53,636 bases of DNA from Dimargaris cristalligena (taxonomy: Eukaryota): positions 1 through 53,636 of the forward strand of contig ML002265.1 in the NCBI GenBank assembly GCA_003614675.1, written 5' to 3'. Position 1 is the first letter of the stretch. Every line of letters begins with the position of its first letter. A program made the position numbers and the translations under genes. Shown here one piece after another: positions 14,873-51,756 of this stretch. Below the pieces are notes generated by a model. The model was not told the origin of the DNA and made no database searches. It saw only the letters and a list, made by a program, of their open reading frames with translations.

Positions 14873-15155
14873 GTATGCGCGCCCCTGGCACCTCCCCACA
14901 TTGATTATTGTTCCCATCTGAAACCGCATGTCTTTAACCCTAACCCCCACCATAGTATCCCCGCATAGTAGTAGTATTAGTAGTATTGGTAGTAGTGTAT
15001 AGCCCTCGCCTTCCCCGCTCCATATCGAGTCACTATCTTATATTACCCACCCACTTGGTTGTCTTCTTCTTAGCTAAGCGACTTCCCCCCTTATCCTTCC
15101 ACACCCCTTCACCTAGCCTGTCTATTGTCTGTCTCCCCCCCTCTCGTAACGTACC

Positions 15156-18601: not shown

Positions 18602-19180
18602 GGTGTTCGGGAGGTTCGCAGGTAAAGAAGGACAAGAGAAAACGCGAATGGAGAGGTATAATAGTACATGTAAAAGGGAAAAGAGGTAGGGGGAGGAGAG
18701 GAGAGGGTTCGTTTTGGGAAGGACGGCCCAAACCGGTGGGTTCAGGTGGGTGTCGCAGCATATAGTATAGTTATCCCCTTGTTGGGTGGTCAAGTCGAAA
18801 ACTCTCCGAAGTCCGTGTCTCTTATCTTAATGCTTTTTTCGCCTAGTAGAGTAGTGACATCCTATAGAGAAAGTGCAAGGTGTGAGGAAAGTCGCTTCCC
18901 CTGGCCCGGTGGGACTTTTTTTAGTCCAAAGGTGGGACAATAAATGCTTTCCAGTCCGGACTTTAAAAGTGGCGCATACGAGGGAGATTGCAGGCTATTA
19001 GACCAATGAGAGAAAGAGTGAGCGAGCATAACAGCCGAATCTAGGCCCCAGTAAAGCTCTCCCTCATTATTAGCCTACTGCAACCACCACCACCATTCGC
19101 TGTATTCCCATCCCTTTGGCCTTTTCGGTTGTTTTTTATAGACTGTTTCTATCTACACTACTCCTTCGCATCCGGTAACC

Positions 19181-21002: not shown

Positions 21003-21794
21003 ACGACGACGGGCCCCACATTTATACAGTAAATTGGGTGAGGGAGCATTCCCTCCCTAAATATACCTTCTCATCTTCAGCACACCATTTATATACTTCT
21101 TTGATGTGTCGTTTTTCTCCAATAGTCGAACCGCAATATTCCTAGTACTCCCCACCCCTTCGCCCCATTATTTTTTATGGACTAGTTGTCTCTCGCAATC
21201 TAGGATAAAAAAAGACTATAGGCATACCATTCACCTACATTGATATTTCATGCGCGACATGCGAATACATGCGGACAGCACCAGTTTCCATGAATTAGTG
21301 AATCCTTCAACATCCTTTTAATACCAGAAATCCACAATAAATTGAAAAACGCTGATATTTGGAAATATCTTTAGTATTTAACCAATTGATGTAAAATACG
21401 CGGCAGGGCTATTGCAATTTTTAACCTTGACTTTAGCTTACCACTCGTTTCCTGCCAATAGCGGTATATATTGCAGTCAACATCACCATCCGGCTGTTAC
21501 AAGCCCAATAGAGAGTGATAAATAGAACATAGCAGCCACACCATACTATTTAATTCCACACACACTCTAATTTTTGACTGTGCGAATTAGTTTCAGACCA
21601 GTCTATTTCATGGGGCTGTCCTTTTTTTCTTTCTTTCTTTCCTATTCCTCCATTCCAGGCTTCTTTGACTTCGTCTATTTTTGACCATTCATTCAACCAT
21701 TTCTCCCTGTTCCTGCCCAGAGGGCTTTCTATAGTCCCCCCTTTAGTCTAGACTACGCGTATCTATAAGTCTTTTTTATATAGCTATAACTATA

Positions 21795-22778
21795 ATGTCA
21801 CTCGACCCTACTCACCCGAGGTACCCCAAACAGTATGAGGGCCAAATTCGGTACCCGTGCTTGGTGCAACGGACAGGGCCCATTGAGGAGGTGTATTTCC
21901 GCTGCGAGCGTAAACGGTTGCGATTCCAAGCGCATAAACGAGCCCGGGATCGGCGAGTGGCCCGCCGCTTGGCTAATTTAGGCGACGAGCACCTCGGTCC
22001 AGCCGATACCACCAAAATCTGCATATTGTCCAGCGACCTGCCGCCTATTCCACCCTTCACGCGGAAAAGAACCGCCGAGGAAGAGGCTGGCCTCGTCATC
22101 AAAGTGCTGAAAAGCGAGAGAGTGGCCGATGTCAAAGGTGAAGCCGAAGCCGAAGACGGAGACGGAGAAGAAGATGCCGACGACGACAACGCAATAATAG
22201 TGAAAGAAGAGATGGAAATCCCCCTGGTCCTCTCTCAAACCCAGCAGCAGCCCATGCTTCCCTTGTCTCCCTCCGCATTATCAGCTGACGAAGACCGCGA
22301 TGGTTCAGCCGCCGTACCACCCAAAGGAGTCGCTGGCTCAGGGCTACCTCCGTCACGTTTGGGTGACTTGCACCAGCCGTACACCACGTCCAAGTTTATC
22401 GGAGGCACTTTTGACCAGCCAACGTTTCGGATTCTATTCCCCGAACAGGGCAAGGATACGTCGCCTTGGGACACTAAATACGGCCACTTGCTTAACCAGC
22501 GGCCGGCTTTACCGGAGGACAACCCGACCAGAGGCGGCAGTGGTCCGCCGACTACTACTACTACTACTACTACTACTCCGTTGCCCGACTTGGATCTTCC
22601 GTCGTACGACCTTATTCACCACCTCCACGGCACGGCATCCATTTATACCCAGCTCCACGGGATGCAGCGGCTACAGGGAAGCCTAACCCCGAGCTCGATG
22701 GTTTGCTTTGCCATCATGATTCAGGAATACGCCCGCCATTTGCTAAAACACGACACCCACCCTAAACCTCCCCAATAA
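21795..22778 (+). CDS. Hypothetical protein, 327 aa, with a C-terminal region resembling the UAF subunit Rrn10
   Basis: Long ORF with coding-like composition. LPSYDLIHHLHGTASIY...SLTPSSMVCFAIMIQEYARHLL resembles the recalled Rrn10 pattern LP.SDLL..IH.YAS...S.DE.AL...GIL.EE. Confidence 0.55.
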   Translation: MSLDPTHPRYPKQYEGQIRYPCLVQRTGPIEEVYFRCERKRLRFQAHKRARDRRVARRLANLGDEHLGPADTTKICILSSDLPPIPPFTRKRTAEEEAGLVIKVLKSERVADVKGEAEAEDGDGEEDADDDNAIIVKEEMEIPLVLSQTQQQPMLPLSPSALSADEDRDGSAAVPPKGVAGSGLPPSRLGDLHQPYTTSKFIGGTFDQPTFRILFPEQGKDTSPWDTKYGHLLNQRPALPEDNPTRGGSGPPTTTTTTTTTPLPDLDLPSYDLIHHLHGTASIYTQLHGMQRLQGSLTPSSMVCFAIMIQEYARHLLKHDTHPKPPQ

Positions 22779-28320: not shown

Positions 28321-31278
28321 ATGTGGGCTCCGGAACCTCAAAGCCTGGCCGATCTCGTCCAGATGCTGGCCAACTCCATCTCGTCCAATAACGATATCCA
28401 GGCCACCAACGCTCAGGTATGTTATATCTACTACTATAGGCCACCCCCAATACTCCCTTGTCTATCTGGGGTGAAACTCCGGAGTCCCGAGTCTAACAAT
28501 ATAATTCCCGAGCCGAGTCTCCATGCACTCGGTTTGGTGAAAGTGTCTGAGTTTCCCCGTTGCGGAATTATGTGTCCCCCCAGCATAGTTATATTCAGTG
28601 TCCGTGCTTAAACTAACCCCCGCCCTAACTTCTTCTATGTGCACTTCCACCTACGCCCCTATCTTCAACAGAAACTGGAGGAGCTGAACCGGGTGCCTGA
28701 CTACAACAACTACTTGATTTACGTCCTAACCCAACTTCCCCAAGAAAGCGCTGAAACCCGGGCCGTTGCCGGTTTGCTGCTGAAGAACAATGTTAGGTTG
28801 CACTTCCCGGAAATTACCCCGCCCGTGCTCGAGTACATCAAGGTACACTGCCTGGAGGCCCTAGGCGACTCCGACGCCATGGTGCGTGGTACCGTGGGTA
28901 CCTTGATTACCACCATTGTGTCCCGGGGTGGTATCGCCGCCTGGCCCCAAGTGCTCCCCCGTCTGATGGAGCTGCTGGATCACTCGAACTACAATGTGGT
29001 CGAGGGTGCCTTTGGTGCTCTGCAAAAGATTTGTGAGGACTCCGCTGCCGAACTGGACAACGAGGTAGACGGTACCCAGCCTTTGGAGTTCATGATCCCC
29101 AAATTTATCCAGTACACGGATTCGCCACAGCCTAAACTCCGCGTCTTGGCTCTGTCCTGCATTAATCAGTTTATCCTGGGCCGCCCTAATGCGCTGATGG
29201 TCCACATCGATGCGTTCATGCAGGCTCTGTTCAAGCGGGCGTCGGACGACCGTCCTGAAGTGCGCAAGAACGTCTGCCAGGCTATGGTCATGCTGCTGGA
29301 GTCCCGCCCCGATAAGATCCTGCCCGAGCTCAGCAATATTGTCGACTACATCATCTTCTGTACCGACAGTGACGACGAAAGCCTGGCCTTGGAGGCCTGC
29401 GAGTTTTGGCTTACCTTTGCCGAACAATCCGATATTAGCGGCCACCTGCGCCCCTATCTGCAGAAAATTATCCCTTCCCTGCTTAAGGGCATGGTCTACT
29501 CGGAAATGGACCTGCTGACCCTTGATGTGGACGAGGACGACGCGGTGGTGCCCGATCGGGATGAGGATATCAAACCCCGTCACCACCACTCCAAGGCCCA
29601 TGAGTCCAGCCGCGGCGAGGGTGCGGAGCCTCAAGCCGCCGGGTCGGACGACGACAGCGATGACGATGATGATGACGACGACATGGATGACATGTACGCC
29701 GAATGGAACCTGCGTAAATGTTCCGCTGCTTCGCTCGACGTGATGGCCTCCGTGTTCGGCACCGATATTCTGGAACACATTCTGCCCCTGCTGCAGCAAG
29801 CCCTTTTCGACTCCGACTGGATGCGGAAGGAGTGCGGCATCTTGGCCCTGGGTGCCATCGCGGACGGTGCTATGGCCGGTATTGAGTCGTATCTGCCCGA
29901 ACTGGTTCCTATCCTGTTGGAGCACCTTAACCACCCCAAGGCCCTGGTGCGCTCCATTTCCTGCTGGACCCTCAGCCGTTACTCGGCCTGGTGCTGCCAC
30001 ACCGTCGACGAAGCCGCCAAGGCCAAGTACTTCATCCCCATGCTTGATGGTCTGTCCCGCATGATCCTGGATAACAATAAGCGCGTCCAGGAGGCCGCGT
30101 GCAGTGCCTTCGCCACCATCGAGGAGGAGGCCGGTGCCGAACTGGCGCCCTACCTCGATCCCATTATCCAGTGCCTGGTCCAGGCCTTCACCAAATACCA
30201 AAAGAAGAACCTGCTCATCCTGTACGACGCCGTAGGTACCTTGGCTGATTCCGTCGGCGAGGCTCTGAACCGCCCCGAATACATCCAGATGCTGATGCCC
30301 CCGCTCATCAATAAGTGGCACCAGCTGGGCGATGAGGACCGCAACCTGTTCCCCCTTCTGGAATGCCTGTCCTCCGTGACCGCCGCGGTGGGTCTGGGTT
30401 TCCAGCCCTATGCCCCGCCCGTCTTTGAGCGGTGCGTCAACATCGTGACCAATTCGATTACGATTATCCAGCAGGGCAATCTCGACCCGACCCTGGAACA
30501 GGAGCAAAAGGACTTTATTGTCGTGGCCTTGGATCTGCTCAGCGGTATGGTACAGGGCTTGGGAGCCTCCAGCGAGGCCCTCATTGCCTCCAGCCACCCC
30601 CCGTTCATGCAGATTGTTATGGCCTGTTTGAACGACAGCCTGCCCGAAGTCCGTCAGTCTACCTACGCATTGTTGGGTGACTTGGCTATGTCGACCTTCA
30701 CCCACGTCCGCCCGCACTTGGAGCAGATTTTCCCCGGCCTCATTGCCCAAATCGACCCCCGCTCGGAGGAGATTTCGGTATGCAATAACGCGGCCTGGTC
30801 CGCCGGTGAAATTTCCCTGAAGTACGGTGCGGAAATGCAGCCCTGGATCAACCCGCTTCTCGAGCGCCTCATTCCCCTGCTGAACAACCCCAAGACCGCC
30901 CGCACGTTGGCCGAAAATGCCGCCATTACCATTGGTCGCCTGGGCCTGGTCTGCCCCGCCCTGGTCGCCCCCCACTTGGAGAGCTTCGCCAAGCGATTCT
31001 GCACCCTCCTGGGCCAAATCCGCGACAATGACGAAAAGGACTCGGCGTTCCGTGGTTTATGCACTCTGATTGAGGCTAACCCTAACGGCATCCTGCCCTC
31101 CTTTGTGTACTTCTGTGACGCTGTAGCCCGGTGGCAGACACCCTCGGCCCCACTTAACGAGATGATGGGCAAGATTCTGCATGGTGTCAAACAAATGAGC
31201 GGCGAGAACTGGGCCGGGTATCTGAATAGTTTCCCCGAGAATATTCGGACCGTATTGGTGGAGCGTTACGGTATCTAA
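28321..31278 (+). CDS. KAP104: Transportin-1 / karyopherin beta-2; exons 28321-28416, 28672-31278
   Basis: MWAP..., PDYNNYLIYVL, AGLLLKNN, ALEACEFWL, acidic H8 loop, WNLRKCSAASLD, KYQKKNLLILYDA. Confidence 0.96.
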
Positions 31279-33507: not shown

Positions 33508-34809
33508 CTAGGCCTCGGGCTTCATGTTGGCCAGTCCCTCAATGAGATGTTCATAAAAATTGATACCCTCCAAGAAACAGTCCACGGTCACGTATTCGTT
33601 ATGGTCGTGTAACAAAATGGGGGTATTCCGCATGGGCGATATGCCAAAGGCCGGGATACCGAGGGGCCGCACAAATCGGGCATCAGTGGCTCCGGCAAAC
33701 ACATCGACATCCAGGGCAATATCCAGCTGCTTAGTGACGTTCTGGATCACCCCCCACCAGGGGTTATTGTCGTCCAGGTCGGTGATGTTCCGGGCGGTGT
33801 ATTTTTGGATGAATTCTAATTCGACGCCGTGGTCCTGGGCTAGTTTATGGAGGTAGGCATCAAATGCGTTAAAGTCGGTGAAGGGAGTGACGCGAATGTC
33901 AAAGGAGGCCTCGACGGATTCGGGGACTACGTTGACTTGTTTGCCGCAGTGGAGCATGGTGAGGTTGACGCTGGTGACGTCGCCCAGGCGCAAGCGAGGG
34001 GCGAATTGCGCCCTGCTCTCCCCTTCGTGGTCTTGGTCCTTAGTTTGATCTTGATCCTGGCCTATCATCCGACGCTCCTCCCGATCCCGAAAGGCCAGCA
34101 GTTCGTTTACCACGCCCATGATTTTAGTCATGGCGGTGCCCTGGATAAACTGGCTGCCGTGGCCGGTATTGCCATGGGCGGTGAATTTAGTCCACCAGGG
34201 GGCCTTTTCGCTGTGGAACAGCTTGTACATATTACCGGGGTGGGCGACCCCTTCGTCCAGGAAGGCGCCGATGTTAAGGGCTTCGAAGCCGGGGTGGTGG
34301 CAGAATAGTTCCATGCCGCGGTGACTGCCGATTTCCTCGTCGGGCACGAACAAGACGTGGATGGTCCGGAGGAGTTGCGTGATTCCCCGGGCCTTTAGCT
34401 TACGGATGGCCTCCAGGTAGCACATGCCAACGATTTTCATATCCTGGGCCCCGCGGGCGACGATGCGGTATTCAGTCTTTGTGGGGTCTGCGCTGGAGGG
34501 GGCGGGAACAATGACGGCGGCGAAGGGGGCGTGGTCCCAGAAGGCCTCGTAGACGGGTACCACGTCGGTGTGGCTGTTCAGGGCCAGACTGGGCAGAGTG
34601 GGGTCCTGGCCCGGCCAGCTTAGAATGACGATGGGCCGGTCGGGGGCCATTTCGTAGGTTTGGACGGCGAGGTCCAGCTCGGCGGCCTGTTGGAGGAGAA
34701 ACTGGGTGCATGTGCTATAGTCGGGGTCGGGCTGGACGGTCTTAATGCGTAAATACTGTTGGAAGCGGTCGACCGACGGAGGGAACTGGGGAAGGGGAGC
34801 GGAGGTCAT
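33508..34809 (-). CDS. ACY1: Aminoacylase-1 (M20A metallopeptidase), 433 aa
   Basis: NSHTDVVP, ARGAQDMK, PDEEIG, LDEG, GATDARF, LLHDHNE; metal-binding motifs intact. Confidence 0.93.
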   Translation of the reverse strand: MTSAPLPQFPPSVDRFQQYLRIKTVQPDPDYSTCTQFLLQQAAELDLAVQTYEMAPDRPIVILSWPGQDPTLPSLALNSHTDVVPVYEAFWDHAPFAAVIVPAPSSADPTKTEYRIVARGAQDMKIVGMCYLEAIRKLKARGITQLLRTIHVLFVPDEEIGSHRGMELFCHHPGFEALNIGAFLDEGVAHPGNMYKLFHSEKAPWWTKFTAHGNTGHGSQFIQGTAMTKIMGVVNELLAFRDREERRMIGQDQDQTKDQDHEGESRAQFAPRLRLGDVTSVNLTMLHCGKQVNVVPESVEASFDIRVTPFTDFNAFDAYLHKLAQDHGVELEFIQKYTARNITDLDDNNPWWGVIQNVTKQLDIALDVDVFAGATDARFVRPLGIPAFGISPMRNTPILLHDHNEYVTVDCFLEGINFYEHLIEGLANMKPEA

Positions 34810-36587
34810 GGTGGTGGCTGGAGGAGAGGAGGGGTGGAGGTGGGAAGAATGGGGTAAGGAAATGGGCTGGAAAGAAATGGAAAACGGCGGGAAGAGGAGG
34901 GAGCGGGACAGGTTACCGCTGTTCTACGGGTCTCGCTCTGGCCGTGTGAGGGGAGTGGTTCCCCTTCCCACACCTACGCCCCAGCTGCAGGTGCGATGGA
35001 GGTTGCACCTTCCTAATTAAACATTCTCCTTTGTGACTCGCTGGTTGTTGTCTGTGCTCCAGGGACAAGGCCAAAAAGGGGAGGGCATATTACCGATGCA
35101 TCGTATCGGCGTATTGATCCGGTTTTTTGTTCGGGACTGAGACCCGGTAACAACGGCCCTTTGTGTCCCGGATTCCGCTCGACGGAGCCGATAAATCCGA
35201 CGGATCGGGTGACCAAAACTCGTCATCACAAGGGACTCGCGCCTGACAAGATCAGGGCCATGTAAAACAGTCCAAAGGAGGCGCAATGATCCGTGCTGTG
35301 TCACAGGAGGGAGTTATGGGCAGCTCAGTAACGCTTTCTCGTTTTGGGAAGGTCTGGTGAGCAACCACTATCACCACACCCGGTGACTTATTCCAGGCCC
35401 AGGCCCAAGGATCACCGGCTACTTTTATAGGCGAGAGCTTTTCGGAGCCAATTAGATTAGTAGAGGAGAGTAGAGTAGTAGTGGATTGTACACTCCGCCC
35501 CACAGCACCCCGTCGCTTGGTTAATTTCCCTTCCTTCCTCCTTTATTTTCCCTATCAACTCAACTCAACTCAACGCCTATTCTCTTCCGCTATTATACTA
35601 GTTTGCTCCCGAGTTTTTCTGGTTTACCGAGCCGCTCGTTACTTACGGCCACCTAGTTGTTTATAGCTATATTATTACCAGCTGCCCTTGTTTTGTGCAC
35701 CTGCACCCGAACCTACGACTCGACAACCACCGCCCCCCAAAAATAGGCTTTTCCACACCCGGCTAGTCTAATCCATTCAGCGGACGCGCCCACTCGCTTT
35801 AAAAAGCCCGCTGGTTTCACACCGCGTGCCAGTTTCCCGGTTTCAGTCCTGTCTGGTATAATACACTTCTACTTCTACCGTCTTCGCATTCCTTTTTGCT
35901 AGCATTGCCCTTTATTCTGTGCCTGGAATCCCCAGTCTCCCTTCTTACCTTCAATTCCATAGTCTCCCCTTGGCTAATCGACTGCGCTGCCTCGTCCCCG
36001 CTACACTCGCTTCGTTGCTTCCTCTTTGGTGCTCGCCACCCACTCCCCTGCACCAGTAAGTACGCCATGCGTCAACGGACAGCCCCGTCTGAAACACCCC
36101 GCAACGGTTTAATTTTGTTCCCTTATATTCCGACTGGACACGGGTTGGATTGAGTTATCAATTTTAATCCATACCCACAATGAAAATGAAGGGGTCAGCG
36201 GGTGCCCATTTAATGAGATTTCCAATGGGGGTACCTGAAACGCCCTGGGCTCTATTCCCCGGTGCGCTATCCCCCGATCCATATTATCCATGCAATCAAA
36301 GCGACCCTAATAGCCCCTGGCGGGGGGAAAGACTAGTAGTCAGTCCCCCACAGACCGTGCAAAGGGTTTATCCGAATTCTAATCAACTCATCACCATCAT
36401 TAGGGTCGAGTTGCCTCAGAGGCTAACCGGGCATTCTGTCCCAATATAATCCCCGGTGCTCGCTCCTGGATTTCTCGTCAAATAACTGGTGAATTATACC
36501 CTTCCGTTTATCAACCCCATCCTTCCTCCATTAACCGAATTTCCCTTCCGCCGCCATTACCCCTATCCATTCTCCCCTCCGCCCGCC

Positions 36588-39383
36588 ATGGCTCTGCGTT
36601 CCCGTGTCCGTTCCGTCACTAGCCTCCTTAAACCCATTAGCACTATGGGTAACCAGCAAAGCTCCAACCTCCCCGCCTACTACAACGCTGACCCGACCAA
36701 CGAGGCCACTTTCCATGCGCTATCCAAGTACACCGGTAGGTCCCACTATGCTCTCCACCCCATCCTTCTTCATCTACAACCTAGTTGTCCCCTGGTCTCG
36801 ATATCCGGTTTAACTAAACCGCCCCAATCACTTCAACCATATTTTGCCCTGCATCTCCCCGCATTACGAGCTCAGACCTGGCCTCCAACCAACTCGGCAG
36901 TGAAATCGTTAGTGTTAGTGACGAGTTTTTCGCCGCCGCCCAGAACCTCCTGAAGCCCGGGCCGTCGGTTCAGGATAAGACCCGCGTTACTGGTAAGTTC
37001 CCCATATGGATGGCCGTGGGAAGCCCCCTTATATATATATATTGGTAGACCCTTCTTTCAGCACTGATTAATTCATCAAGACCCGATATCTCTCTCTCTA
37101 CTGATTCTTTTCCTGCCTGTTTACAGACCAGGGCGCCTGGTACGATGGCTGGGAAACTCGCCGTCACAATCACGCACACGACTGGTAAGTGCTTCTCTCT
37201 TCTTACTATTATTTTCCGCCGACTGATTTTATCCCGATTGGGCATGCTGCCGACCCGCGCGTTACATGTGATGACTTTCATTTTGTACTTATGGGTCCCC
37301 TCCTGATCCAAGAGATGGATATAATATTTAACTCCGGCGTTATCCACCCCATCCCTCGTATGATTATTTTCTGCGGCGGCCTCCTCCCCTGCCTAATCGT
37401 TCAGGGTAATCATTAAGCTGGGCTTCTCCGGCTGCATCGCCGGATTCGATATAGATACCGCCCACTTTAATGGCAATCACGCCCCGGTGGCCTCGGTGGA
37501 CGCCTGTTATGTGTCTGAGGACGCTGGCCCTAATCCGGAATACAAGGTAAGCACATTTGCCTTAAGTGGCATTCCCTCTCTCTCACTCTCTCACACACTA
37601 TCTCTTGCGGAATGAGTGCCCCTCCTAACCACTGGGTATTACTTGGGCTTCTGCATCCTAATGCACTGGCCTGTTCTATTGCCATCATATTATTCACCAT
37701 TGGTTAAATCATTATCGGTACTTTCTTCTTTGCTGGACACGTTCCTTAGTGGGAGAATATTCTGCCCAAGGTTGACCTAGGCCCCTCCGCCCGTCATTTA
37801 CTGGCTCTCTGGAATCCCCCGGCCGCCATTTTCAGTCATGTCCGACTGAACATCTTTCCTGACGGCGGCGTGGTAAGCAAACACCCATCGATATCCCGAT
37901 TTAATACACATACCGAGGTTTGCTTTTATCCGATCCCCTTCTTATCACGATCTACTCATCATTTATTTTTTCATTATACCTTGATACATGGTCCTCTGCA
38001 TTCCTGCATTAATAGGCTCGGTTCCGTGTCTACGGCAATGTGAAGCCCAAGTGGTCGCTTATCAGGTAAGGATTGCATTGCCCCTCGATGGCTTACTATA
38101 CTGATCCAACTCGATTAAGGACGCCCCGGCAAAACGCCAGTATATCCTTTTCTGCTCCCCACTAGGAGGCTGCATATTCGAACATATATCCTTATCGTAT
38201 CTAAACGCGCTGTATGCCTTTCTATATCCTAATTAAGCATCACCCCTTATAGCATTGACGAGGATATTGACCTGGCCAATGTGGGCAGTGGTGGCCGAGC
38301 TGTGGCCTGCAGTGATAGTCACTTTAGGTAAGTCTATCCGATAAAGTCGTAGAATGGAAACCAACTTTGCCCCCACTATTCGTACCATCTCATGATATAC
38401 CGGCTACTATCCGTTTACTTCGATTAAACGATTGTCGACCATCACATGGCACAAATGCCGTCAGATTGAATGCCGGCATGCATACGGCCTCTTTAACTAA
38501 CTCGTTACGCTTATTTACCCTCCCCCCTTATCCTTTAATCGTCGCACCCATCAGCTCAATGAACAACCTCATCCTGCCGGGCCGCGGCAAAGTCATGATG
38601 GACGGCTGGGAAACCCGGCGCTCGCGGACTCCCAACCATTCCGACTGGGTTACCATCAAGCTGGGGGCCACCGGCTACCTGGACAAGGCCGAAATCGACA
38701 CGTACCAGTTTAAAGGCAACTTCCCCGAGGCAGCCACCCTCCAGGCCTGCTACAGTTTGGAAGAGAACCCCGATGATGACCCCGATTGTTTCTGGTTCCA
38801 AATCCTGGCCAAGACCCGTTTGGAAGCCGACCGGGTGCACTTCGTGACCCTGAACCTGGCTAACCAGCCTTTTACCCACGTCAAACTCACCATTTATCCC
38901 GATGGCGGCGTCAAACGGCTCCGGGTGTACGGGCGGCACTGTACCGACCAGGAAATCAAGATCCGTCTGCCCGTGGGAGCGTCCACTAAGTCGCCAAGTC
39001 AATCCGCCAATCACCAGCCACCCAAGGCACCGGTGACCAAGCCCCGGGAAACTCCTACCAATGGGCATAACGCCGTGGCTGCCACTACTAATGGTAGCGG
39101 GAACGTAGAAATGGTCCTGACCACCACCGAATTTAGCATCGAACGCACGATGGTCAACAACGGGGACCAGGCCACCACCACCACCACCACCACCCAGTCT
39201 TCGACCAGCCACGGTAAGAAGGCCCGCGCCCGTGCCCGTGAAGAGGACGACCACCATAACAACAACGACCAGGATGAAGCCGAGTCGCCCCGGTCCTCAA
39301 CCCACTCGGCCACCGGATCTCTAAAGCGCCCTAAAAAGTCCAAGCAGCGGTCTCGCAATGGGAGTCTGTCCAAGACCCAGTAG
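36588..39383 (+). CDS. DAL2: Allantoicase, 8 exons, with a low-complexity C-terminal extension; alternative start at 36645
   Basis: Two allantoicase repeats assembled over GT-AG introns: SDEFFAAAQNLL, YDGWETRRHN, IDTAHFNGN, NIFPDGGVARFRVYG, DGWETRRSR, IYPDGGVKRLRVYG. Confidence 0.92.
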
Positions 39384-40325: not shown

Positions 40326-42459
40326 ATGGACATTACCCGCGACAACTTCGAAATCCACTTGGACTACATCCAAGAGTCTATCTCCGAGGCCAGTTTTATT
40401 GCCATCGATGCTGAATTCTCGGGGTTACACGTCGGTGCTGAAACCAAAGACGCGCCCAACGACACCCATGAGGACCGGTACCTCAAGAACCGGCGCATGG
40501 CCGAAGCTTACGACATTATCCAGTTCGGTCTCACCACCTTTATCTACCGGCCCGAGACCAGCACCACCACTACTACTGACAATTCCCCGGGGGTAGAGGA
40601 CTCCATGACCCTGCACCGGCTCCGAACGTCGTTCCAGCTGGCCCCAAAGACCAGTTATGTGGACCCCGAAGAACCCCACCACCCGGCTTATTATGAGGCC
40701 CGGACGTTTAATTTTTACCTGTTTCCCACCACCGTATCCGTCGGACGGGCCCACCTTGACGTGATGGGATCGTTCCAGAATTCCGCCCTGGATTTCCTGG
40801 CCCGTTCGAAATTCGACTTCAATAAATGGATCACGGCCGGCATACCGTACATGAATCCGGCCCAAGTGGTCGAGTGTCGGTCGCGGCGGCAGGAGGAACT
40901 CCATAATGGACTGCCGGATATTCCGGTGGACGATAAGAGTGAACAATTCTACAGGCATTTAGAGTAAGTCACGAGAGGAACCGTCCGGTGCAACCCTTGT
41001 TCGGGTCGAAGGGTAGCTGAAACAGGCCAATCCGTCTCCTCCCTATCTATATATATATATATGTGACCCAATAGATGGCCCCACGATTTATGCTATATAC
41101 AAGTATACTCAGGTTGATCAATCGATACCTTTTTATTTGTTCCATGACCTTGGCTTTATCTATCCTCCGCCACTCTAGCCGTAAACTGAAGAAATGGGCT
41201 TCTAACCCAAGCGCCCCTTTGAAATTAACCGTCTCCAGTAATTACCAGAGGCGCTTAATTCACCAACACGTTCGAAGGTAAGCCTGGCCGAGTCTTATTT
41301 TTGTCCATGGTGGAGTGATTAACCATGGGTTCAGATACCGGTTGTTGCCCTCGTTTCTAAAGTCCCAACATCGTCAATGGGCTCCCCTTTGTAGGAGTAC
41401 CGGCTGCGTACATCATCAATACCGGTGCTAATGAACCCCCCCCTCTACACCCGTACCTCTTACCCAACCTATACTATTATACAACAAACTAGCCTAGGAC
41501 CGCGGTTCGTATCCAAGTCCTATGGGAATCATGTCCAAGTCACCTGTATTTCGAGCGAGCAAGCCAAAACCCGGAAAATGCAGCGCATCACCGAATTCGA
41601 AAACAATCTCAAGCGGGCCGAAGGGTTTTCCCAGGTCATTAAGATGCTCATCCGGGCCCGCAAACCACTCATTGGCCACAATATGTTTCTGGATCTCTGT
41701 CACTTGTACGACCAGTTCTGGGAGCGCCTACCACCCACCCTAGTCGAATTCCAGCGGGCCATCCATAAGCTGTTCCCCCGGATTTGGGACACGAAGAACA
41801 TGGCCGAGGAAATCTTCAATTACGGCGGTGGGGATGGCACCCATCACCAACTGGAGACAAAACTGGAGGACCTTTACCGGGATAACCGCCACGTGAAATG
41901 GGACTACCCCTACGTACGCCTCCACAATGAATTCAATCGCTACGAGTCCGACAAATTCCACGAGGCCGGCTTCGATTCGTTGATCACGGGGATTGTCTTT
42001 GCCCGTCTGCACCGCAGGTGGATGGAGGATATGGACCCCGGCTTGGAAGATCTGACCTACGAGATTAATTTCACCGATATCGACCTTATCAATATGGGCA
42101 ATGCCGTACCCATGTATCAAATGAAGGAACGTCAACTACACCTCGATGCCCCAGCCTGTAAGTCGCTTACTATACCCCAACTGGTTTTCTTGGCTATATT
42201 ACAAAGTGTCTATCGCACACCATTATCGGACATGCGACTAGTTATGCTTATGGGTTTATACTTATATATATATATATTATATCTTCCGACATTTCAATCA
42301 CCATGGCTTTTTCACATCTATCTAGTACGCGATCAAGCCGCTGCTTATCGGCGGAAGATCCGGACTAACGGCCTCGACTCTGACGATTATGATGAAGGCA
42401 CCCCCGTAGAGGATATTGCTATTGGGATGCTTTCCAGTTGGATTGGCAGGCCCTACTAG
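40326..42459 (+). CDS. PARN-like CAF1-family (DEDDh) ribonuclease, copy 1, catalytically intact; exons 40326-40963, 41179-41277, 41493-42157, 42326-42459
   Basis: MDITRDNF, IAIDAEFSG, FDFNKWI..GIPY, R3H motif QRRLIHQ, GHNMFLDL, WDTK, HEAGFDS. Confidence 0.92.
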
Positions 42460-43582
42460 ACCCAGTCCCTATTTACTTTGGTGCGTGGAAAAGAGAGCCT
42501 TCCTTTACACTTTGGCTAGATGTTCCTACTTTTACCTAAGGATCCAACCCCCGACTGATCGCCCTGCCGTCGGTATGTACGTCATTTAAGTCGTATGCTT
42601 CAGTTCTATCTATGTTTTACAAAAATTCTATTATTTTCGATACTCCTACACTTTTTGGATGTTCAACCTCTTATATTATTCTTGAATCCCCATATCATCC
42701 TATAGTATGCATGTACAACAGTTGTATCGTTCCCTCTATACTACTCAGGCTTGTATATTATGTCTTAAACAAAAACTGGTTTGCTTAGTGTATTTTTCAG
42801 ATTTATATAATAAATATCATAGTTCGAGTTTAGACTAAACCTTTCACTATATTTGACAATACTTACTAAGAAATGGGTTTAATTCATACCGAATGTAGCA
42901 ATGCGAAATATACTACTCCATTTAAATAATGACATGGTATACTTGACTAGATTGCGATGGCGAAGGAAGCAAGTAACTAAAGACAAGAATACCCACAGGA
43001 ATATGGATGGGTAGATAAAATATTGTGGTGTTCTGTATGGCACTTACTGAATGGCTTCCCCAACCCATTGAACAGGCAATGTTGATTTACTACCACGATT
43101 TTCTTAAATTAACATCCTCTCATTTATCCCGTTACCACTGTAACCACGACCCTTGATAACACCATGCCAGACCCCACCATTGTAGGCTTCTAAATACCGC
43201 CCAGTGTATATCGGCTATACAACACCTGTTCACTGTGGAGTTCTATCAGTAGACATACCCTTGTTCCCCCCCATTCAGCTCTGAACTCCCCCCAGCTTGA
43301 ATCGCGTCCATTTGGCATCCCATGGGTAAAATTGGAGATGTGCATTCCCAGATTCCTCAACCCGTGTACTCTACTTTTTTAAACCTTCCAATTAGTTCCG
43401 CATGCCTTCAATTGAGGCAAGCCCGGCGTTTTATCCACCCTCGTCCCCCTCATTCTCACTCCCCTTAGCTTATTCTATTTCCATTTTCCCCTTCGCCTTG
43501 AATCCACACACCTACGCCTCCATTGGCCCAGGGTGCAACCCTCGGTGAGACTCCTTCCCCCCCATTCTCCTCCCGCCCTTCC

Positions 43583-46000
43583 ATGGACATAACCCGTTTG
43601 AATTTCGAGTCCCAACTGGGCTATATCCAACAAACCATCACCGACGCCTCCTTTATCGCCATCGACGCCGAATTCTCCGGGGACAGCCTTGACCATGTCC
43701 CCCGGGACGACCCGGACGACACTCCCGAAGTCCGCTACCACAAATGCCGGCGGCTAGCCGAAACGTTCGATATTGTCCGGTTTGGCCTCACCGCGTTCGT
43801 TTGGCGACCGGCCCACCATTCGGCTGGGCGGGGGGGTAGTAGCAAGGGGGAAAAGGGGTTGGAGGCTTCCATAGCCCTGCCACCTTCTCCTCCTCCTCTA
43901 GTACCATCGAACCAGAAGAGGTTTGGTTCAGTGAGCCGTAATGCTTCTTCCCCAATTAAAGGAAACGGGGGAGACCACCACGTAAGCGACGTGGAAGACT
44001 ATTACGAGGCTCATTCGTTTAATTTTTACCTATTTCCGACGACCCAGTCCGTCGGTCGGGCCCACTTGGACGTGGTCGGGAATTTCCAGAATTCGGCCAT
44101 GGATCGGTTGGCCAAGGCCCGGTTCGACTTCAACACGTGGGTTAACCACGGGATTCCCTACATGAATTCCCCACAGGCTAAAGAATGCCGTCGGTTACGT
44201 CACTTGGAAATTCGGGAGCCCCGGCCCGATATTCCGGTGGACGAAAAGAATCGGGCGTTTTACCAGGATATATGGTGAGTACGATGTATTTTGAAATATA
44301 CCTCTAGTTAATTAGATATCCGATCTATGCGGAATAGAGGCACCCATGGTGCAACGGTGCTATCAGGCAGTTCATTCCTGAGTATGAGGTGCCACATTAG
44401 GTGCCATAGCCGGCGCTCTTGGGTATGCTCCTTGGAATTGAAGGTAACTTGGGCGATACCTTACTTTCCCGAATTTTAACTCATCACATTACTGTTATGC
44501 TTCCGAACTCCATGTATGTTAAATGTAATTACCCAATTTTACGAGAGCAGCGCTCAACTAACCAAGTGGATGGGCACAGACACGCCATTTTTGCGGATCC
44601 CGGTGGCCAATAACTACCAACGGCGTCTAGTTCATCAAACAGTACGGGGGTGAGTTTTCATTGGCATTTTCTTAAATCTGCATAGCCATTTAGCAGTTTT
44701 TAAGGGGCAAATAGGAAAATACCATCCAATACACCATTCTTGGGGCAATGGCCGCATACACATAGCCCTTTACTAATACGTGCCTCTCGACCCGTTCACC
44801 AATCGCCTGTATCTCCGTTTGCCCCCGGCCCACCACCAGATTTGGTCCCCGCTACTTTTCGCAGTCCTTCCCGAATTGCATTCAAATAGGCCATGAAACG
44901 ACCGCCCAGGCCCAAAAGCGCAAGAAACGACTCATCCAGGAATTCGAAGCCAACCTCAAAAAAGCCCGGGGGTTTTCCCGGGTTATCCGGATGCTGCGCA
45001 AAGCCGCCAAACCGATCATCGGCCACGACCTTTTCCCCACCCTGGTACACCTGTACGACCAATTCTGTACCCACCTACCACCGACCTTGACGGCTTTTAA
45101 AAAAGCGCTTCATCGGCAATTCCCGCACATGTGGGATACTCGGAATATAGCGGAAGCCTTGACGGATGGGCGGGCGGCGGCCGACTTTGATTGTACGCTC
45201 GAAGGTCTGTACACCGCCGCCGCCGTCGACGCTGACACCGACTGTACCGGGCTCCGCCGGGATGCGACCGCCTACCCGGTGATCCACCGCGTGCACCACG
45301 GTCCTCCTCCGGCGGACTGCGATCGTTTGGGTCCGGCGGGCGTTAATTCGTTGGCCGCTGGGATAGTATTTGCTCGCCTCCATGGCGCTTTGCACGAACG
45401 CAACCGAGTATCCGCTCCCCCGGGGGATAAAGCGCTCCCGATTGCCTTTGGGGAGGACGTCCTGCGGCCGTTTGCTAGCCAGTTACACATGGGCCAGATG
45501 AAAGTCAACCGGCTATGCGTGAACGATCCCATTGGTAAGTTTTTTTAAAATTTGATGGTGTACTCTATTCGGCCTTTGTTTGCTGAGTTGTCTGTTTTGG
45601 TCTAAGATGTGACATTGTCGGCATTGGCGTTCTACCGGTAACTACTTGGGCTGTGGCTACCATTTAACTCTATATTTGCCAACTGGATCTGGCGACTGCT
45701 ATAATACTGGGCCGGGGTCACTATATCTATTTTTCCTTGTTTTATATTATGCATCCAGTGGTTTTATCACGCACCGTCCGGCGTTTGGCCACATGGAACG
45801 AGTACCTTCGCTGGGGTCCGCGCCCGGCCACGATGGGAACCATCACCCAGCGCACTTTTCCTTATCAACTCTTTGAGCGCTATTTGGCAACTGTCGGGGA
45901 TACCGAGCGTGAGGGCGATCATAATGATCATGCAACGGATAGTGATCAGGATGACGGCGATGTCCATCATGCTGATGATGGACTTGGTGGAGACGTATAG
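43583..46000 (+). CDS. PARN-like paralog, copy 2, predicted catalytically inactive; exons 43583-44274, 44551-44649, 44840-45534, 45759-46000
   Basis: MDITRLNF, IAIDAEFSG, QRRLVHQ and the same three intron positions and phases as copy 1. It carries GHDLFPTL and GPAGVNS in place of GHNMFLDL and HEAGFDS. Confidence 0.87.
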
Positions 46001-46717: not shown

Positions 46718-48091
46718 TTAATTAGTAGGGGGCAGTACCCCCCCTAAGTGTAACCATCCGAATACTAAAGGTACCCCAAAACAGGCCAGGTAACCAATGC
46801 CGGCGTAGTTCAACATGCGGGTCAGGTTGTGCAAATCGAATGCGTAGTTGAGTTGAATTGGGAGTGTTGAGGGCACGGACGGTTGTTGCCGATCGGCAGG
46901 CGAAGCCAGCGGGGTCAGAAATTTGAGCACCGTGGTCAATAGGGGCAGGGCGGTTATTTTCCAAACCACCAGGATAGTAAGGCCCAGGATGATGCGGACC
47001 AAAGTCCAAAACAGCCCCAGGGTCCGAAAGTCGTAGGGCACGGTGGCCAAGTACGGACTGGATACGGATTGGGGATGGTCGGCGTAACTCCAAGTACCAA
47101 TGGCGATGCCCACCAACACTCCCAGGGAGGCAAAACTATCCTGGTAGCAGAGGCAGGGGCCGATGGCCACGGGAAAAATGTAGGTGGCTACCCAGACCAG
47201 GGCCACAGTTACCCAAGGGACCGAGTAGTGGTGGCTCACCAAGTAGGCGTCAATATAGGGCATACCGAGATAAACCACAAGCCACCAGGTAGCCCCCACT
47301 AATAACCCCCCCACCACGTCGGTTAAGCTATGCATGCCGCAATAGAGCCGGCCGGCGGAGATACTGGTGGCCAACAGGGTGATTAGGATTACAGAGACCC
47401 ACTGCCAGTTGGAAATGATCGCGTAGGTTACGGTGGGGGAAGTGGCCGTAATAGAAGTGATCTGGAGAGTCTGCTCAAGCAAGAATAGGGCCACGCTGAC
47501 CGAGTAAGTGGTATGGCTACTGGGAAACCCGTACTCGAAGCTGTGCGAAGTGGTCCACGTTAGCCGGTGCAGGGGTGGAGCCGGTGGACGGGGTAGACAG
47601 AGCCAGTCTTTGATCATGCTGGATAGGTAGATGCCCCCCAGAATCAACAGGACCAGGGTTCGGGCAAAGTAGGACCACCCGAGCCAGAAGAGGAGGGGTA
47701 GGAACAGTAGAAAGAAATTGTGGTTGCCCAGCAGAGAAGTGAGGATAAAGTAAAGATCCCGGTAATGGCTCGGTGAACGAACAGAAGGGGTGCGGCCGGC
47801 GCTGGGTTTTTTGGGCGAAGTTGGATCCTGCTTCTTCGCACATGGATCGAGGTCGCCGCGAGCATCATAGCCGGCGTGGCCGCGCAGGGCGGTTTGTATC
47901 CGGACTAGTAAGGGCGTCTCCGACTGAACGAGGAGGAGTAGAGTCGCGCGACAAGCCGCGCGCCAGGAACCCACATATTGCGGGGCCAGGGTATCGTTAT
48001 TAGTCGGGGGCTCGTTGGGGCCGGGTTTACCCGTGAGCACGGACGTGGGGGCGACATCCGCGCTCGGTTCGGGGGGTTGGGTAATGGTCAT
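46718..48091 (-). CDS. LCB3: Long-chain base (sphingosine)-1-phosphate phosphatase, PAP2 family, 457 aa
   Basis: KDWLCLPRP, EYGFPSSH, GRLYCGMHSLTDVVGG, multiple TM helices. Confidence 0.9.
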   Translation of the reverse strand: MTITQPPEPSADVAPTSVLTGKPGPNEPPTNNDTLAPQYVGSWRAACRATLLLLVQSETPLLVRIQTALRGHAGYDARGDLDPCAKKQDPTSPKKPSAGRTPSVRSPSHYRDLYFILTSLLGNHNFFLLFLPLLFWLGWSYFARTLVLLILGGIYLSSMIKDWLCLPRPPAPPLHRLTWTTSHSFEYGFPSSHTTYSVSVALFLLEQTLQITSITATSPTVTYAIISNWQWVSVILITLLATSISAGRLYCGMHSLTDVVGGLLVGATWWLVVYLGMPYIDAYLVSHHYSVPWVTVALVWVATYIFPVAIGPCLCYQDSFASLGVLVGIAIGTWSYADHPQSVSSPYLATVPYDFRTLGLFWTLVRIILGLTILVVWKITALPLLTTVLKFLTPLASPADRQQPSVPSTLPIQLNYAFDLHNLTRMLNYAGIGYLACFGVPLVFGWLHLGGVLPPTN

Positions 48092-49847
48092 GGGCTAGAT
48101 GGTCGGGCCGGGGAGGAGGGGCTCTTCTCTTAGTTCTCGGTATGCAATAGCCTTTGGGTAATGGGAATGGTGGCTATTGAAAGGAATAGGCCAATTCGAA
48201 TTAGGTTTAGGGTAAAGAGGGTGTATATAACTCGACACGTAAAGACCGCCACGGACGTAGGTAGAGGAGACATGCCCTTCGTTACACGGCAGAAGGCAAG
48301 GAGAGTAACAAGGAGACGCTAAAAGCTCGGGCGGGTATGTGTACTGGATGGAAATGGTGTGAGTCCGCAGAAGCACTCTTTTTTTGCTAGCAAGCACCTC
48401 TTGAAAGGGAAAACCTCAGAAATACTCGCTCGCCCCCCTTGTCTACCTCTCTGGCCAAGCTTTGGCCAAGCAGAAAGCATAGGAGGGCTTGCTGAAAACG
48501 CAAAGCATTGGTTACTACTGTGAATGGTAATCGATTTGGACAGTAAACAGAACGCCACACATGGGTTAGATTCCTCACCACAAATTAGCGCTGTTACATG
48601 GTATTATTGAATCGGGCAAAACGAGCTATGTAGGCCGTCGTATATTATATATATATATATATATATAGTTCTCATAAAAGAAATGGCCGACAATCATACA
48701 TCCATGTCTTAGTGCTGTCCTGATTAGCACACCTATTATTGGTGTCCTAATATAATGTCGCCCACCTCGGCCTAATATACCACATGTGGGGGGACATTTG
48801 ATTCCGGCATTGGGCGGCTTGCTTGCACTCAAGTCCATCTCCAATTAAAGTATAGAAAGATGGGGGGGTGGAAAATTACCCACAGCTAGAAGGATATATA
48901 TAGTATTTATGAGGCATTGTTTACCACGCCTTGGTGCCACCTAATTGGAATTATACATTTCTTAAGCCTTTCTCCAATCTAGCTGACGGGGCAAAAGTCT
49001 GCGCTGTTGTAATGATGAGCTCATGTTAAAGGACAGGCAGCAGAAGAGATAAACCAGATTGGGCATCTTCTGGAAGATGGTGTTTGCGTTGCTGGACAAT
49101 GGCGGGGTTATTTTATATTAGGGTTTGCGCTAACTTAAAACACTATGGGAGAATATGTGAAATAATTTGGGGGTCAATCGGATACCATTTCGCTGGTGGT
49201 CAAAAATCATTTTTTCTAGGCATATATATATATATCCTCTCGTTGGTAGTGTGGTTCGAAATGGACCAGGAAAATCACAATATCCTTCCTTAATAAAGAG
49301 TAAGTTACCTTCCTCCCATTGCCATTTCTAAAGAAATATGCCAATTCCTTCCACCTTATGATTCCTTCAGTATTATAAGGCAAATGTGCCAAATTCGCGG
49401 CCTAAGAACCTCTTTGTTTATCATTCCCGTCAGTTCCGAGTAACCAGCTGACCTCTCCCCTCACCGACACGGGCAATTCCCCCCCCCAGGCTGGCCCATT
49501 CCCAATCCCCTCCTACTCAACCTGCCCTTTTAACCTCGCCTTCACCTTTCCTGTTTAATTAACCCTTCTTAGAAAGCCCATTGTTGGCGATTCACCACCA
49601 CTTACCTACTTACTATAATTCCTGCTGGTTTGGCCCCAAACTCTACCTAACCTAAACCCCTTCTGGACCGATAAATACCTACTATACGCCCTACCCAACC
49701 CAGTCTATTTTTTTATTCCCCCTCCCTGCTACCAGTGGCCCGGCCCCGCTTGCTATACACCTCCCCACTTGCGCGGCTGTCCTTACTTATATCTCTATCT
49801 TCTTCCCTCCTCCACAACCGACTGGCCCCAGTCTACATGCACCGACC

Positions 49848-50386
49848 ATGAATGTCGTTCACCGTAAAATAACCGTAGTTACTACCCATGAATTACCCAA
49901 GAACCCCGTCAAGGTGGAGGGCATTCCCATCCGCAACTGGTCCGTACTTCTGGCTGAGCGGGACCCCCTTACGAACACCCTGCGTTACGACCTGCCCTTC
50001 ATAAAAGCCGTCGAGTTCGAGCTCCATCCCACCTTCCCGAACCCCGTCACCACCATCCGCCAGGCCCCCTTCCAGTTGCTGGAGAGCGGCTGGGGCGAAT
50101 TCGACATGCGCATTCATATCTACTACTACGACCCCGAAGTGCCGTCCGCTACTTTTCAACATGATCTCAACTTCCGCCGGAAACGGTACGAAACGAATGT
50201 AGACTTGGTAAGTAACTGGCCCTCCTTCTTCTCGGCACCCCTGGCTTGGCCGCGATTCTAAACCGCGTCCCTGTCCAGCGCATATATGAGGGTATATGCA
50301 TCCATATATTCAACGGTGCGTCTTGAGTAGTGCTGGCCAACCATGACGACTTTATGCGTTCTCATTATACATACATAAATAAATAA

Positions 50387-50420
<34 letters not shown>

Positions 50421-51756
50421 ATACGCTCCGCACTACGCGCCATCCCCCTCTTTTTACTTGAATAGCCCATTTCTTCACTTCTTTGGCTGCCTTATACCAC
50501 TCTGCCTGTGCAGTAACGTCACCCTTCACTGATGGAGATATCGATCAATACCAACCCCGTATATGCGGCCATCGACCATACATGCCTCCCTAACTTCGTT
50601 ACCCGTTTTGATTCTGATTCTAATTATGGTTCTGGTTCGGTTTTTGTACCCCTTTATTTATGGAAACCTGCAGGAAATCATCGAACCTAATCCAGAAATG
50701 GTCCGACGCCTTGATCCACATTACCCCGCCCAAGATATCCAGCCCCTCAAGTGCCCTGCCACCAGCGGTAAAGCCAAGCGCAAGGAAAAGGAAAAGGATA
50801 AAGATAAGGACAAGAAAAAGGCCCGCTCGGCCTATGGCTCGGCGCCATCGCAAACCGCTAGCCCCTCTGTAACCGCCCCCACCCCGGCCGAGTCGGTTGG
50901 CCACGGTCGGTCACGGGAAGACCAGTACGAGACCGACCACCATTATTCACCCTATGGTTCAATCCCCCTCCCCGAAACTACTTCGACCCCGGCCTCCACC
51001 GTCAGCAACGGAGGGATCCCCCATGCCATGAACTCCCTGAATCAAGGTGGCGCCGTCCCCTTTCCTTCAGGCTCGTCCACGGCCATACCCAGCACCGCTT
51101 CAGCTAATGCCAACTACCGATCCGGGCCTGGGAACCAGTTTGGGGGAATCCCAGACGCCGTGGAATACTCCCCGGCCGAGAACGGCATCGACCCTGCAGG
51201 CCGGTACCCAAGTTACCCTCACACCTATCCCATTTCAAATGAATCATCTTCCCCATTATCCTCCGTGGGTTCCCACCTGACCCCGGCCACCCACGTCAAC
51301 CCCCCTGGGCAAACGCGGCGGGGACCAGTTGACTTGGGAACCCATGACACCAGCGGAGGGGGAGGCTATCCATCCGTAGCCACCTCTAACTATTACCCTA
51401 CCATTGCCGGAAATCGACCAGTCAACGGGCACATTGGTGATGCAGACACCCGCCGGGTAACGGAAATGATTTCAACCACTGACGAACTTTGGATACGTAT
51501 GAAGGCCCTGGCCGACCGATTATACACCCTCCCACCTAGCGGGGTATTAGAGGTGGTTGAAACAGTCAAGGCCCAGCGCCTGCCGTACACCTACATCAAC
51601 GAATCCGTCGCTGATGAATTCCATTTTGATCTCTTTACCCTCCCGACACCCCTTATCGATCAACTATGGGCCGTCATCGACACTTACGAGGCCGCTGGTC
51701 AACTAGTCCCAGCCACCACCACCACCAATACCACCACCTCATCATCCTCTTACTAA
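49848..51756 (+). CDS. TAF14: YEATS + ET domain protein, TAF14-like; exons 49848-50207, 50674-51756
   Basis: PIRNWS, FELHPTFPNP, PFQLLESGWGEF, HDLNF. C-terminal LADRLYTL...EFHFDLFTLP..LIDQLW (ET domain). Confidence 0.85.
50387..50423. repeat. (TA)n(TG)n microsatellite in the TAF14-like intron; other (TA)n tracts at about 11727, 13545 and 48644
   Basis: Directly visible dinucleotide runs. Confidence 0.85.

Follow-up and report, generated by a model that had tools for sequence, protein, structure and literature searches.

A tandem pair of PARN-family genes in Dimargaris cristalligena: a complete catalytic set beside a probable maintained pseudo-nuclease

Published accounts of the deadenylase PARN present it as a homodimer carrying two active sites (PMC3516499, PMC2504292), and the purpose of duplicating the active site within the dimer has been called unclear (PMC2504292). 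Two relatives, Schizosaccharomyces pombe Triman and PNLDC1, are small-RNA trimmers of the PARN family, and PNLDC1, whose RRM is only partial, forms an active dimer (PMC5062988). DEDD folds that lack a full catalytic set on a conserved scaffold have also been reported, namely Exuperantia and the PXL of PML (PMC13659232). Our study concerns a 53,636-nt stretch of the Dimargaris cristalligena genome (contig ML002265.1 of assembly GCA_003614675.1, positions 1 to 53,636, hereafter the window), in which two PARN-family genes lie in tandem. D. cristalligena, of the order Dimargaritales, is a fungus parasitic on moulds. Both genes share with human and mouse PARN (2a1r, 2a1s, 3d45) the CAF1-family DEDDh fold with an R3H insert and the dimer residues F93, R99, Q109 and F123, but unlike them lack the RRM-type tail. 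The first gene (copy 1) retains the whole catalytic set, whereas the second (copy 2) is without the equivalents of human D292, H377 and D382 and of several RNA contacts. Our data suggest that copy 2 is probably a maintained pseudoenzyme, which may serve as a non-cutting partner or regulator of copy 1.

Gene models were built from the window and compared letter for letter with the public D. cristalligena protein records, as follows.

40326..42459, + strand: copy 1, PARN-family DEDDh nuclease gene; four exons, 511 aa, all catalytic residues, no RRM-type tail
40326-40963, 41179-41277, 41493-42157 and 42326-42459, + strand: exons of copy 1; model identical to record P0158
43583..46000, + strand: copy 2, putative PARN-fold pseudo-nuclease gene; four exons, 575 aa, open frame
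43583-44274, 44551-44649, 44840-45534 and 45759-46000, + strand: exons of copy 2; model identical to record P0002
45759..46000, + strand: last exon of copy 2; uncertain tail, of low confidence, in which no RRM homology was detected

The stop codon of copy 1 is separated from the start of copy 2 by 1,123 bp, neither copy contains an internal stop, and all six introns are GT..AG, occupying three homologous positions with phases 2, 2 and 1. The proteins are 46% identical (229/498), with a proportion of synonymous differences (pS) of 0.75, which is near saturation, 61 of 100 four-fold sites differing and a non-synonymous divergence (dN) of about 0.50. For none of the three intron pairs does the alignment surpass that of shuffled sequences (115, 203 and 216 of 300 shuffles score equally high); taken with the near-saturation of synonymous sites, this indicates that the duplication is old. 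A second public assembly also contains both PARN proteins, with adjacent locus tags, and there copy 2 differs at one residue among its first 495 (1/495) and keeps an open frame, the model ending at a stop within intron 3. Because of that ending, exon 4 of copy 2 is uncertain. An assembly artefact or an allelic copy was considered and ruled out by the 46% identity, the unalignable introns and the adjacent locus tags. As a separate observation, one public model of copy 1 (P0003) is partial, at 374 aa, and skips part of exon 1 (40326-40963); the frame is open there, and P0158, the model of the second assembly, includes that stretch.

Residue numbering was fixed by alignment to human PARN (2a1r), which the sequence-only reading had proposed as a check and which confirmed its register. 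The catalytic and pocket features are given below.

40407..40415, + strand: copy 1 ExoI, D28-A-E30 (D28 at 40407, E30 at 40413)
41692..41694, + strand: copy 1 D313 (human D292), from the alignment to human PARN
41959..41976, + strand: copy 1 H402 to D407 (human H377 and D382; H402 at 41959, D407 at 41974)
43664..43684, + strand: copy 2 ExoI; D28 (43664), E30 (43670), F31 and G33 kept, position 34 Asp (human I34; Leu in 84% of the family)
43778..43780, + strand: copy 2 R66, replacing a family-invariant Gln (human Q68) in the family alignment
45021..45041, + strand: copy 2 ExoII, GHDLFPT; N327D at 45027 (human N288), D331T at 45039 (human D292)
45135..45143, + strand: copy 2 D363 and T364 kept, K365R (human D324, T325, K326) in the family alignment
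45330..45347, + strand: copy 2 ExoIII, GPAGVN instead of HEAGFD; H428G (45330), E429P, D433N (45345)

The five catalytic residues of human PARN (D28, E30, D292, H377, D382) are all present in copy 1, as D28, E30, D313, H402 and D407, from which copy 1 is inferred to be an active nuclease. In copy 2 the same five positions read D, E, T, G and N, and the equivalents of human I34, Q68, F115, N288 and K326 are lost as well, F115 being what we take to be a substrate-pocket residue. In human PARN each of the four acidic residues is essential and H377A inhibits activity (PMC10493513), E30 is reported to read the 3'-OH (PMC10493513), and the named RNA contacts include I34, N288 and Q68 (PMC3516499). 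The sequence-only reading had described two same-strand PARN-like genes about 1.1 kb apart with three matching introns, a full DEDDh set in copy 1, Thr, Gly and Asn replacements beside a kept Asp and Glu in copy 2, an undisrupted copy 2 frame with canonical splice sites, and many synonymous-looking differences; each of these descriptions was borne out, down to the positions of the residues.

This combination of losses was rare among the relatives sampled. Catalytic columns were compared in 163 rows, comprising the two models and 161 proteins, after exclusion of P0001-P0003 as duplicates and of one protein of 1,524 aa; of the 1,753 hits of one homolog search, the best 150 were covered. DEDHD was found in 143 of the 163 rows, most others being gapped at those columns and one full-length row reading EEDHD, and within this set copy 2 was the only row substituted at all three of D292, H377 and D382. 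The EEDHD row, P0097 (549 aa, a full-length PARN homolog), also has GYN in place of GHN and DVR in place of DTK, and is possibly another degenerate PARN.

The losses of copy 2 are concentrated in the pocket. At 34 columns that are at least 90% conserved among 160 homologs, copy 1 changes none (0/34) and copy 2 changes seven (7/34), namely Q66R, F175R, N327D, D331T, K365R, H428G and D433N, equivalent to human Q68, F115, N288, D292, K326, H377 and D382. Of the 34 columns, 13 hold residues to which PMC3516499 assigns a catalytic, RNA-contacting or supporting role, and copy 2 is changed in 6/13 of these pocket columns vs 1/21 of the others (Fisher p=0.007). The single change outside the 13-residue list is that of the F115 equivalent, 97% conserved family-wide, to Arg. 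At 53 conserved non-pocket columns departures from the family majority numbered nine in copy 2 and eight in copy 1, and copy 2 therefore appears as constrained as the intact enzyme outside the pocket. Among the seven changed codons, three differ at positions 1 and 2.

Neutral simulations were started from the copy 1 coding sequence, with two transition ratios and 0.03-0.3 substitutions per site. The probability of at least six pocket changes and at most one other was no more than 0.0021 at any divergence tried, and that of three double-hit codons was at most 0.004. Absence of a stop had a probability of 0.015-0.022 at the divergence yielding seven changes, and absence of a stop together with at least seven changes one of at most 0.009. 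The six insertions unique to copy 2 all preserve the frame. Observed/expected CpG in the exons is 0.99-1.19, showing no CpG loss, and on this ground a methylation-silenced repeat, one of the candidates entertained, was ruled out. Codon adaptation of copy 2 is 0.507, against 0.46-0.65 in four neighbouring open reading frames (ORFs) and 0.30-0.34 in intergenic frames, and outgroup-polarised changes number 56 in copy 2 and 43 in copy 1, a difference that is not significant (p=0.23). With losses concentrated in the pocket, a scaffold conserved as in copy 1 and a pattern rare under neutral decay, copy 2 is probably a maintained pseudoenzyme, and the suggestion of the sequence-only reading to that effect is well supported.

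Both copies are assigned to the CAF1 family (PF04857), with Pfam scores of 285 bits for copy 1 and 208 bits for copy 2 against a cut-off of 24.2, and their sequence matches in the PDB were PARN chains only. A structure model of copy 2, folded from a 60-row alignment whose other 59 rows were mostly active relatives, had a mean predicted local distance difference test score (pLDDT) of 79 and a predicted template modelling score (pTM) of 0.78, with most of residues 501-575 below 50. It matched mouse PARN 3d45 with Z 37.5 and a root mean square deviation (rmsd) of 2.5 over 312 residues, compared with Z 22-25 for Caf1 proteins and Z 11.5 for Exuperantia 5l80. The R3H motif of copy 2 lies as follows.

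44621..44635, + strand: RxxxH (RRLVH) of the copy 2 R3H insert; insert about residues 221-282, in exons 1-3

The RxxxH motif, which had been called intact from the sequence, is present in both copies, although the R3H Pfam scores (20.8 and 13.2 bits) fall below the cut-off of 26.8. A seven-row model of copy 2 matched the PARN R3H domain 1ug8 with an rmsd of 1.9 over 73 columns, pLDDT exceeded 90 there in the 60-row model, and an R3H insert within the nuclease domain was judged to be present in both copies.

The C-terminal RRM that had been thought missing from both genes was searched for with profiles. The family profile picks up 1whv and 3ctr, structures of the PARN RRM, and a tail profile built from 118 homologs, Dimargaritales excluded, matched 4/4 other Dimargaritales orthologs across the RRM region at E 1e-17 to 1e-19. 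The same profile matched copy 2 only at positions 12-54, before the RRM, and neither copy 1 nor six downstream frames gave a match. No hidden RRM exon was matched downstream of either copy with two profiles, and residues 466-560 of copy 2 had no usable match in the Atlas. Neither tail gave RRM homology in these searches, and the earlier remark stands. Exon 4 of copy 2 was also tried as an RRM remnant and rejected, the likeness by eye not being significant. In each copy intron 3 marks the nuclease/RRM junction, and the last exons (42158-42459, 45535-46000) have no clear mutual likeness. As all four other Dimargaritales orthologs keep the tail, its absence represents a lineage-specific loss, which most simply would have happened once, before the duplication.

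Phylogenetic inference placed copies 1 and 2 as sisters with a support of 100/100 in a 16-row tree; a 30-row tree and a 162-row FastTree concurred, and no other row grouped with the pair. An ancient paralog common to Dimargaritales was rejected, since a tree joining copy 1 with the four other Dimargaritales and leaving out copy 2 failed the approximately unbiased test (AU p=1.1e-4). The branch leading to the duplication is long, at 0.48 changes per column. One intact PARN was seen in each of Tieghemiomyces parasiticus (P0010), Dispira simplex (P0011), Dimargaris xerosporica (P0012) and Dimargaris verticillata (P0161), a count made on annotated proteins after clustering at 50% identity, a level at which a close copy 2 ortholog of a sister species could go unseen. 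These four are the nearest relatives in the trees and share 30-43% identity with copy 2 according to the method used; they differ from it in that all are DEDHD, all have the RRM-type tail and none has the residue swap described below. The D. cristalligena genome holds no third PARN copy, its other two CAF1 matches being TOE1-like and Caf1-like as judged from their sequences. Word-based protein searches returned nothing beyond the two copies and distant PARNs, a weak blank, since one of these searches missed proteins of its own query alignment, and a metagenome scan with copy 2 exon 1 confirmed 0 of 248 pattern matches. On this sequence evidence the duplication took place on the D. cristalligena lineage and is lineage-restricted.

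The surface through which PARN dimerizes is well preserved in both copies, and the relevant segments, together with a basic run specific to copy 2, are these.

40707..40832, + strand: copy 1 dimer-surface segment (residues 128-169) with G148/F150, from the sequence alignment
44018..44143, + strand: copy 2 dimer-surface segment (residues 146-187) with the G166/F168 swap; F175R (human F115) at 44105
44916..44930, + strand: copy 2 basic run KRKKR (residues 290-294), found in neither copy 1 nor four orthologs

Both copies retain residues equivalent to human F93, R99, Q109 and F123, and at sequence level the dimer-surface residues F93, F106, C108, I113, F123 and F127 read F, G, F, L/M, F and I/V in copy 1/copy 2. 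A reciprocal swap (40767-40775, 44078-44086) places Gly at human F106 and Phe at C108 in both copies; it is absent from the five nearest relatives, and Gly at the F106 column has a frequency of 0.0 in 160 homologs. Between the copies no block is better conserved than this segment (41/55 identical), and the most diverged region lies around ExoIII (22/64 identical). The activity of PARN requires the dimer surface (PMC10493513, PMC3516499), and substitution of I113, F123 or F127 lowers or abolishes it (PMC10493513). Complex prediction for copy 1 (1-467) with copy 2 (1-495), made without alignments, scored 0.77 against 0.58 for a single unrelated control (n=1); the score is given no weight either way, and a PARN dimer could in any case pass through likeness to solved structures. 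The calculated isoelectric point (pI) of copy 2 is 8.96, compared with 5.8-7.2 for copy 1 and four orthologs, and its KRKKR run presumably resembles a nuclear localisation signal. With the dimer-surface residues kept and the G/F swap common to both copies, a heterodimer of copy 1 and copy 2 would fit the sequences.

The duplication, the pocket-specific loss and the conservation of scaffold and dimer-surface residues are established at the sequence level. The interpretation that we favour, and which could well be correct although we hold it tentatively, is that an RRM-less PARN was duplicated in tandem and that copy 2 was selected as a non-cutting, non-catalytic dimer partner of copy 1. A PARN gene already without its C-terminal RRM-type domain would have been duplicated on the D. 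cristalligena lineage, copy 1 remaining a DEDDh 3'-5' exoribonuclease and copy 2 losing catalysis long ago, then being maintained under selection as a PARN-type protein that folds but does not cut. Once made, copy 2 would pair with copy 1 via the inherited dimer surface. The resulting dimer would have a single active site, copy 2 contributing the dimer contact needed for activity, an R3H domain and a more basic surface; in this way it may set the level, place or substrates of trimming by copy 1. A stronger version, in which this one-active-site heterodimer is the preferred form and the dead subunit took over substrate selection or localisation from the lost RRM, seems unlikely.

Several points weigh against the favoured interpretation. 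The second copy turned up in a single species, in two public assemblies. Its branch is the longer (0.56 vs 0.35 changes per column, i.e. faster), its codon adaptation is below that of copy 1 (0.507 vs 0.601), and its last exon is disputed between models, as an alternative public model (P0001, 499 aa) terminates within intron 3. The structure model leans to active forms because it was folded with mostly active relatives. An extended list of 20 pocket positions, with departures from the family majority at 12/20 in copy 2 and 2/20 in copy 1, was partly picked after data inspection, only the 13-residue list being taken from the paper. The kept dimer segment would fit a copy 2 homodimer equally, because it is family-conserved and core-building; the role of R99 across the PARN dimer is an in silico claim (PMC3516499), and base hydrogen bonds are absent from 2A1R according to a review (PMC10493513).

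It is possible, if rather doubtful, that copy 2 is a maintained pseudoenzyme acting independently of copy 1, its homodimer binding RNA or serving as a scaffold in the manner of Exuperantia or PXL. Such a protein would bind RNA via its R3H domain, its basic surface and a pocket remnant (D28, E30, F31, H326, R365, L384), possibly capping 3' ends. All of the selection evidence applies to it equally, the residue that reads the 3'-OH in human PARN is kept, the high pI and the KRKKR run would suit it, and Exuperantia and PXL are themselves nucleic-acid binders with a catalytically dead DEDD fold (PMC13659232). However, the RNA contacts I34, N288 and Q68 have become D, D and R and the F115 equivalent has become R, so that an oligo(A) end would probably not be held in this pocket as it is in PARN, and the dimer segment is still close to that of copy 1. 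The earlier proposal of a 3'-end protector is weakened for the same reason, several of the replacements being charged, and what stands of it is the retained E30. Exuperantia and PXL, moreover, are EXO/SAM proteins of other subfamilies, whereas copy 2 is of the PARN type, has an R3H insert and sits beside an intact sister gene; it is not an EXO-SAM family protein proper, as it nests within fungal PARN as the sister of copy 1.

That copy 2 is simply a decaying duplicate, released from constraint recently and with its frame unhit so far, we regard as improbable. Its occurrence in one species, longer branch, diverged ExoIII region, lower codon adaptation and uncertain last exon would all be expected of decay, and a very recent loss after long maintenance (below about 0.03 substitutions per site) leaves a probability of at least 0.26 that no stop has arisen, a further point against maintenance. 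Decay is contradicted by the low simulated probabilities of the pocket-only pattern, of three double-hit codons and of an open frame with at least seven changes, by the intact splice sites, start context and exon CpG, and by the open, almost identical protein of the second assembly. More improbable still is that copy 2 was rewired into an enzyme whose nuclease activity is weak or altered, its metal held by D28, E30, the new D327 and perhaps D34. D28 and E30 are indeed kept and N327D lies four residues ahead of the lost D331; budding-yeast Caf1/Pop2 is active in vitro despite a non-canonical metal-binding region (PMC3870282), and the RNase H-like superfamily shows rearranged active sites (PMC3985635). 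Against this, GPAGVN lacks both the general-base His and the ExoIII Asp and offers neither an acidic residue nor a His in their stead, and the substrate pocket is altered too. Under what we take to be a two-metal mechanism, D327 could at best substitute a metal-B ligand. Each of the two ExoIII losses inactivates human PARN (PMC10493513).

The closest parallel for the proposed pairing is the trypanosome editosome, where the RNase III pairs KREN1-3/KREPB6-8 are related subunits of which one is catalytically competent (PMC9508840). Those proteins have another fold, are endonucleases and were demonstrated genetically, whereas the pairing of copy 2 would rest on inference. Triman and PNLDC1 differ from copy 2 in being active enzymes (PMC5062988). 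The D. cristalligena genome has five Piwi matches and one RdRP match, and Triman-like small-RNA trimming by the PARN pair is possible, the presence of the Piwi/RdRP pathway being what bears on it. Two of the Piwi-domain matches lie about 4 kb apart (C749:7586-8482 and C749:12187-13014), a possible tandem Argonaute pair.

The genes surrounding the pair offered no further clue, and the two that flank it are listed here.

38328-39383, + strand: allantoicase-repeat protein gene; no apparent link to the PARN pair
46718-48094, - strand: PAP2-family membrane phosphatase gene; no apparent link to the PARN pair

Other ORFs of the window look ordinary by eye, at 216-2970 (-), 15150-16583 (+), 18311-22778 (+), 28612-31278 (+), 33508-34923 (-) and 49656-51756 (+); labels among them are presumably cullin-like, hexokinase-like, RibD-like, dynamitin-like, transportin-like, M20 aminoacylase-like and YEATS-domain.

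Pseudoenzyme paralogs are common in general, and the PARN paralogs of trypanosomes and Caenorhabditis elegans, which are multiple, may include divergent ones. DEDD pseudo-nucleases are likewise already known, EXD1 and Maelstrom among them, but judged by sequence copy 2, coming from the PARN family, has no counterpart in the literature searched. The open-access literature yielded neither a catalytically dead PARN paralog nor a paper on Dimargaris with PARN, most subscription papers lying outside its coverage. The significance of the finding is limited by its restriction to one poorly studied species. In summary, copy 2 adds a PARN-family member to the short list of DEDD pseudo-nucleases. A preferred heterodimer, if true, would represent a PARN that is half-active by nature and, within the literature searched, the first pairing of enzyme and pseudoenzyme in the PARN deadenylase family. 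A natural pair of intact and disarmed subunits, without the RRM and with matching dimer surfaces, would allow a direct test of what the second subunit of PARN contributes, be it dimer contact, R3H, processivity or substrate choice.

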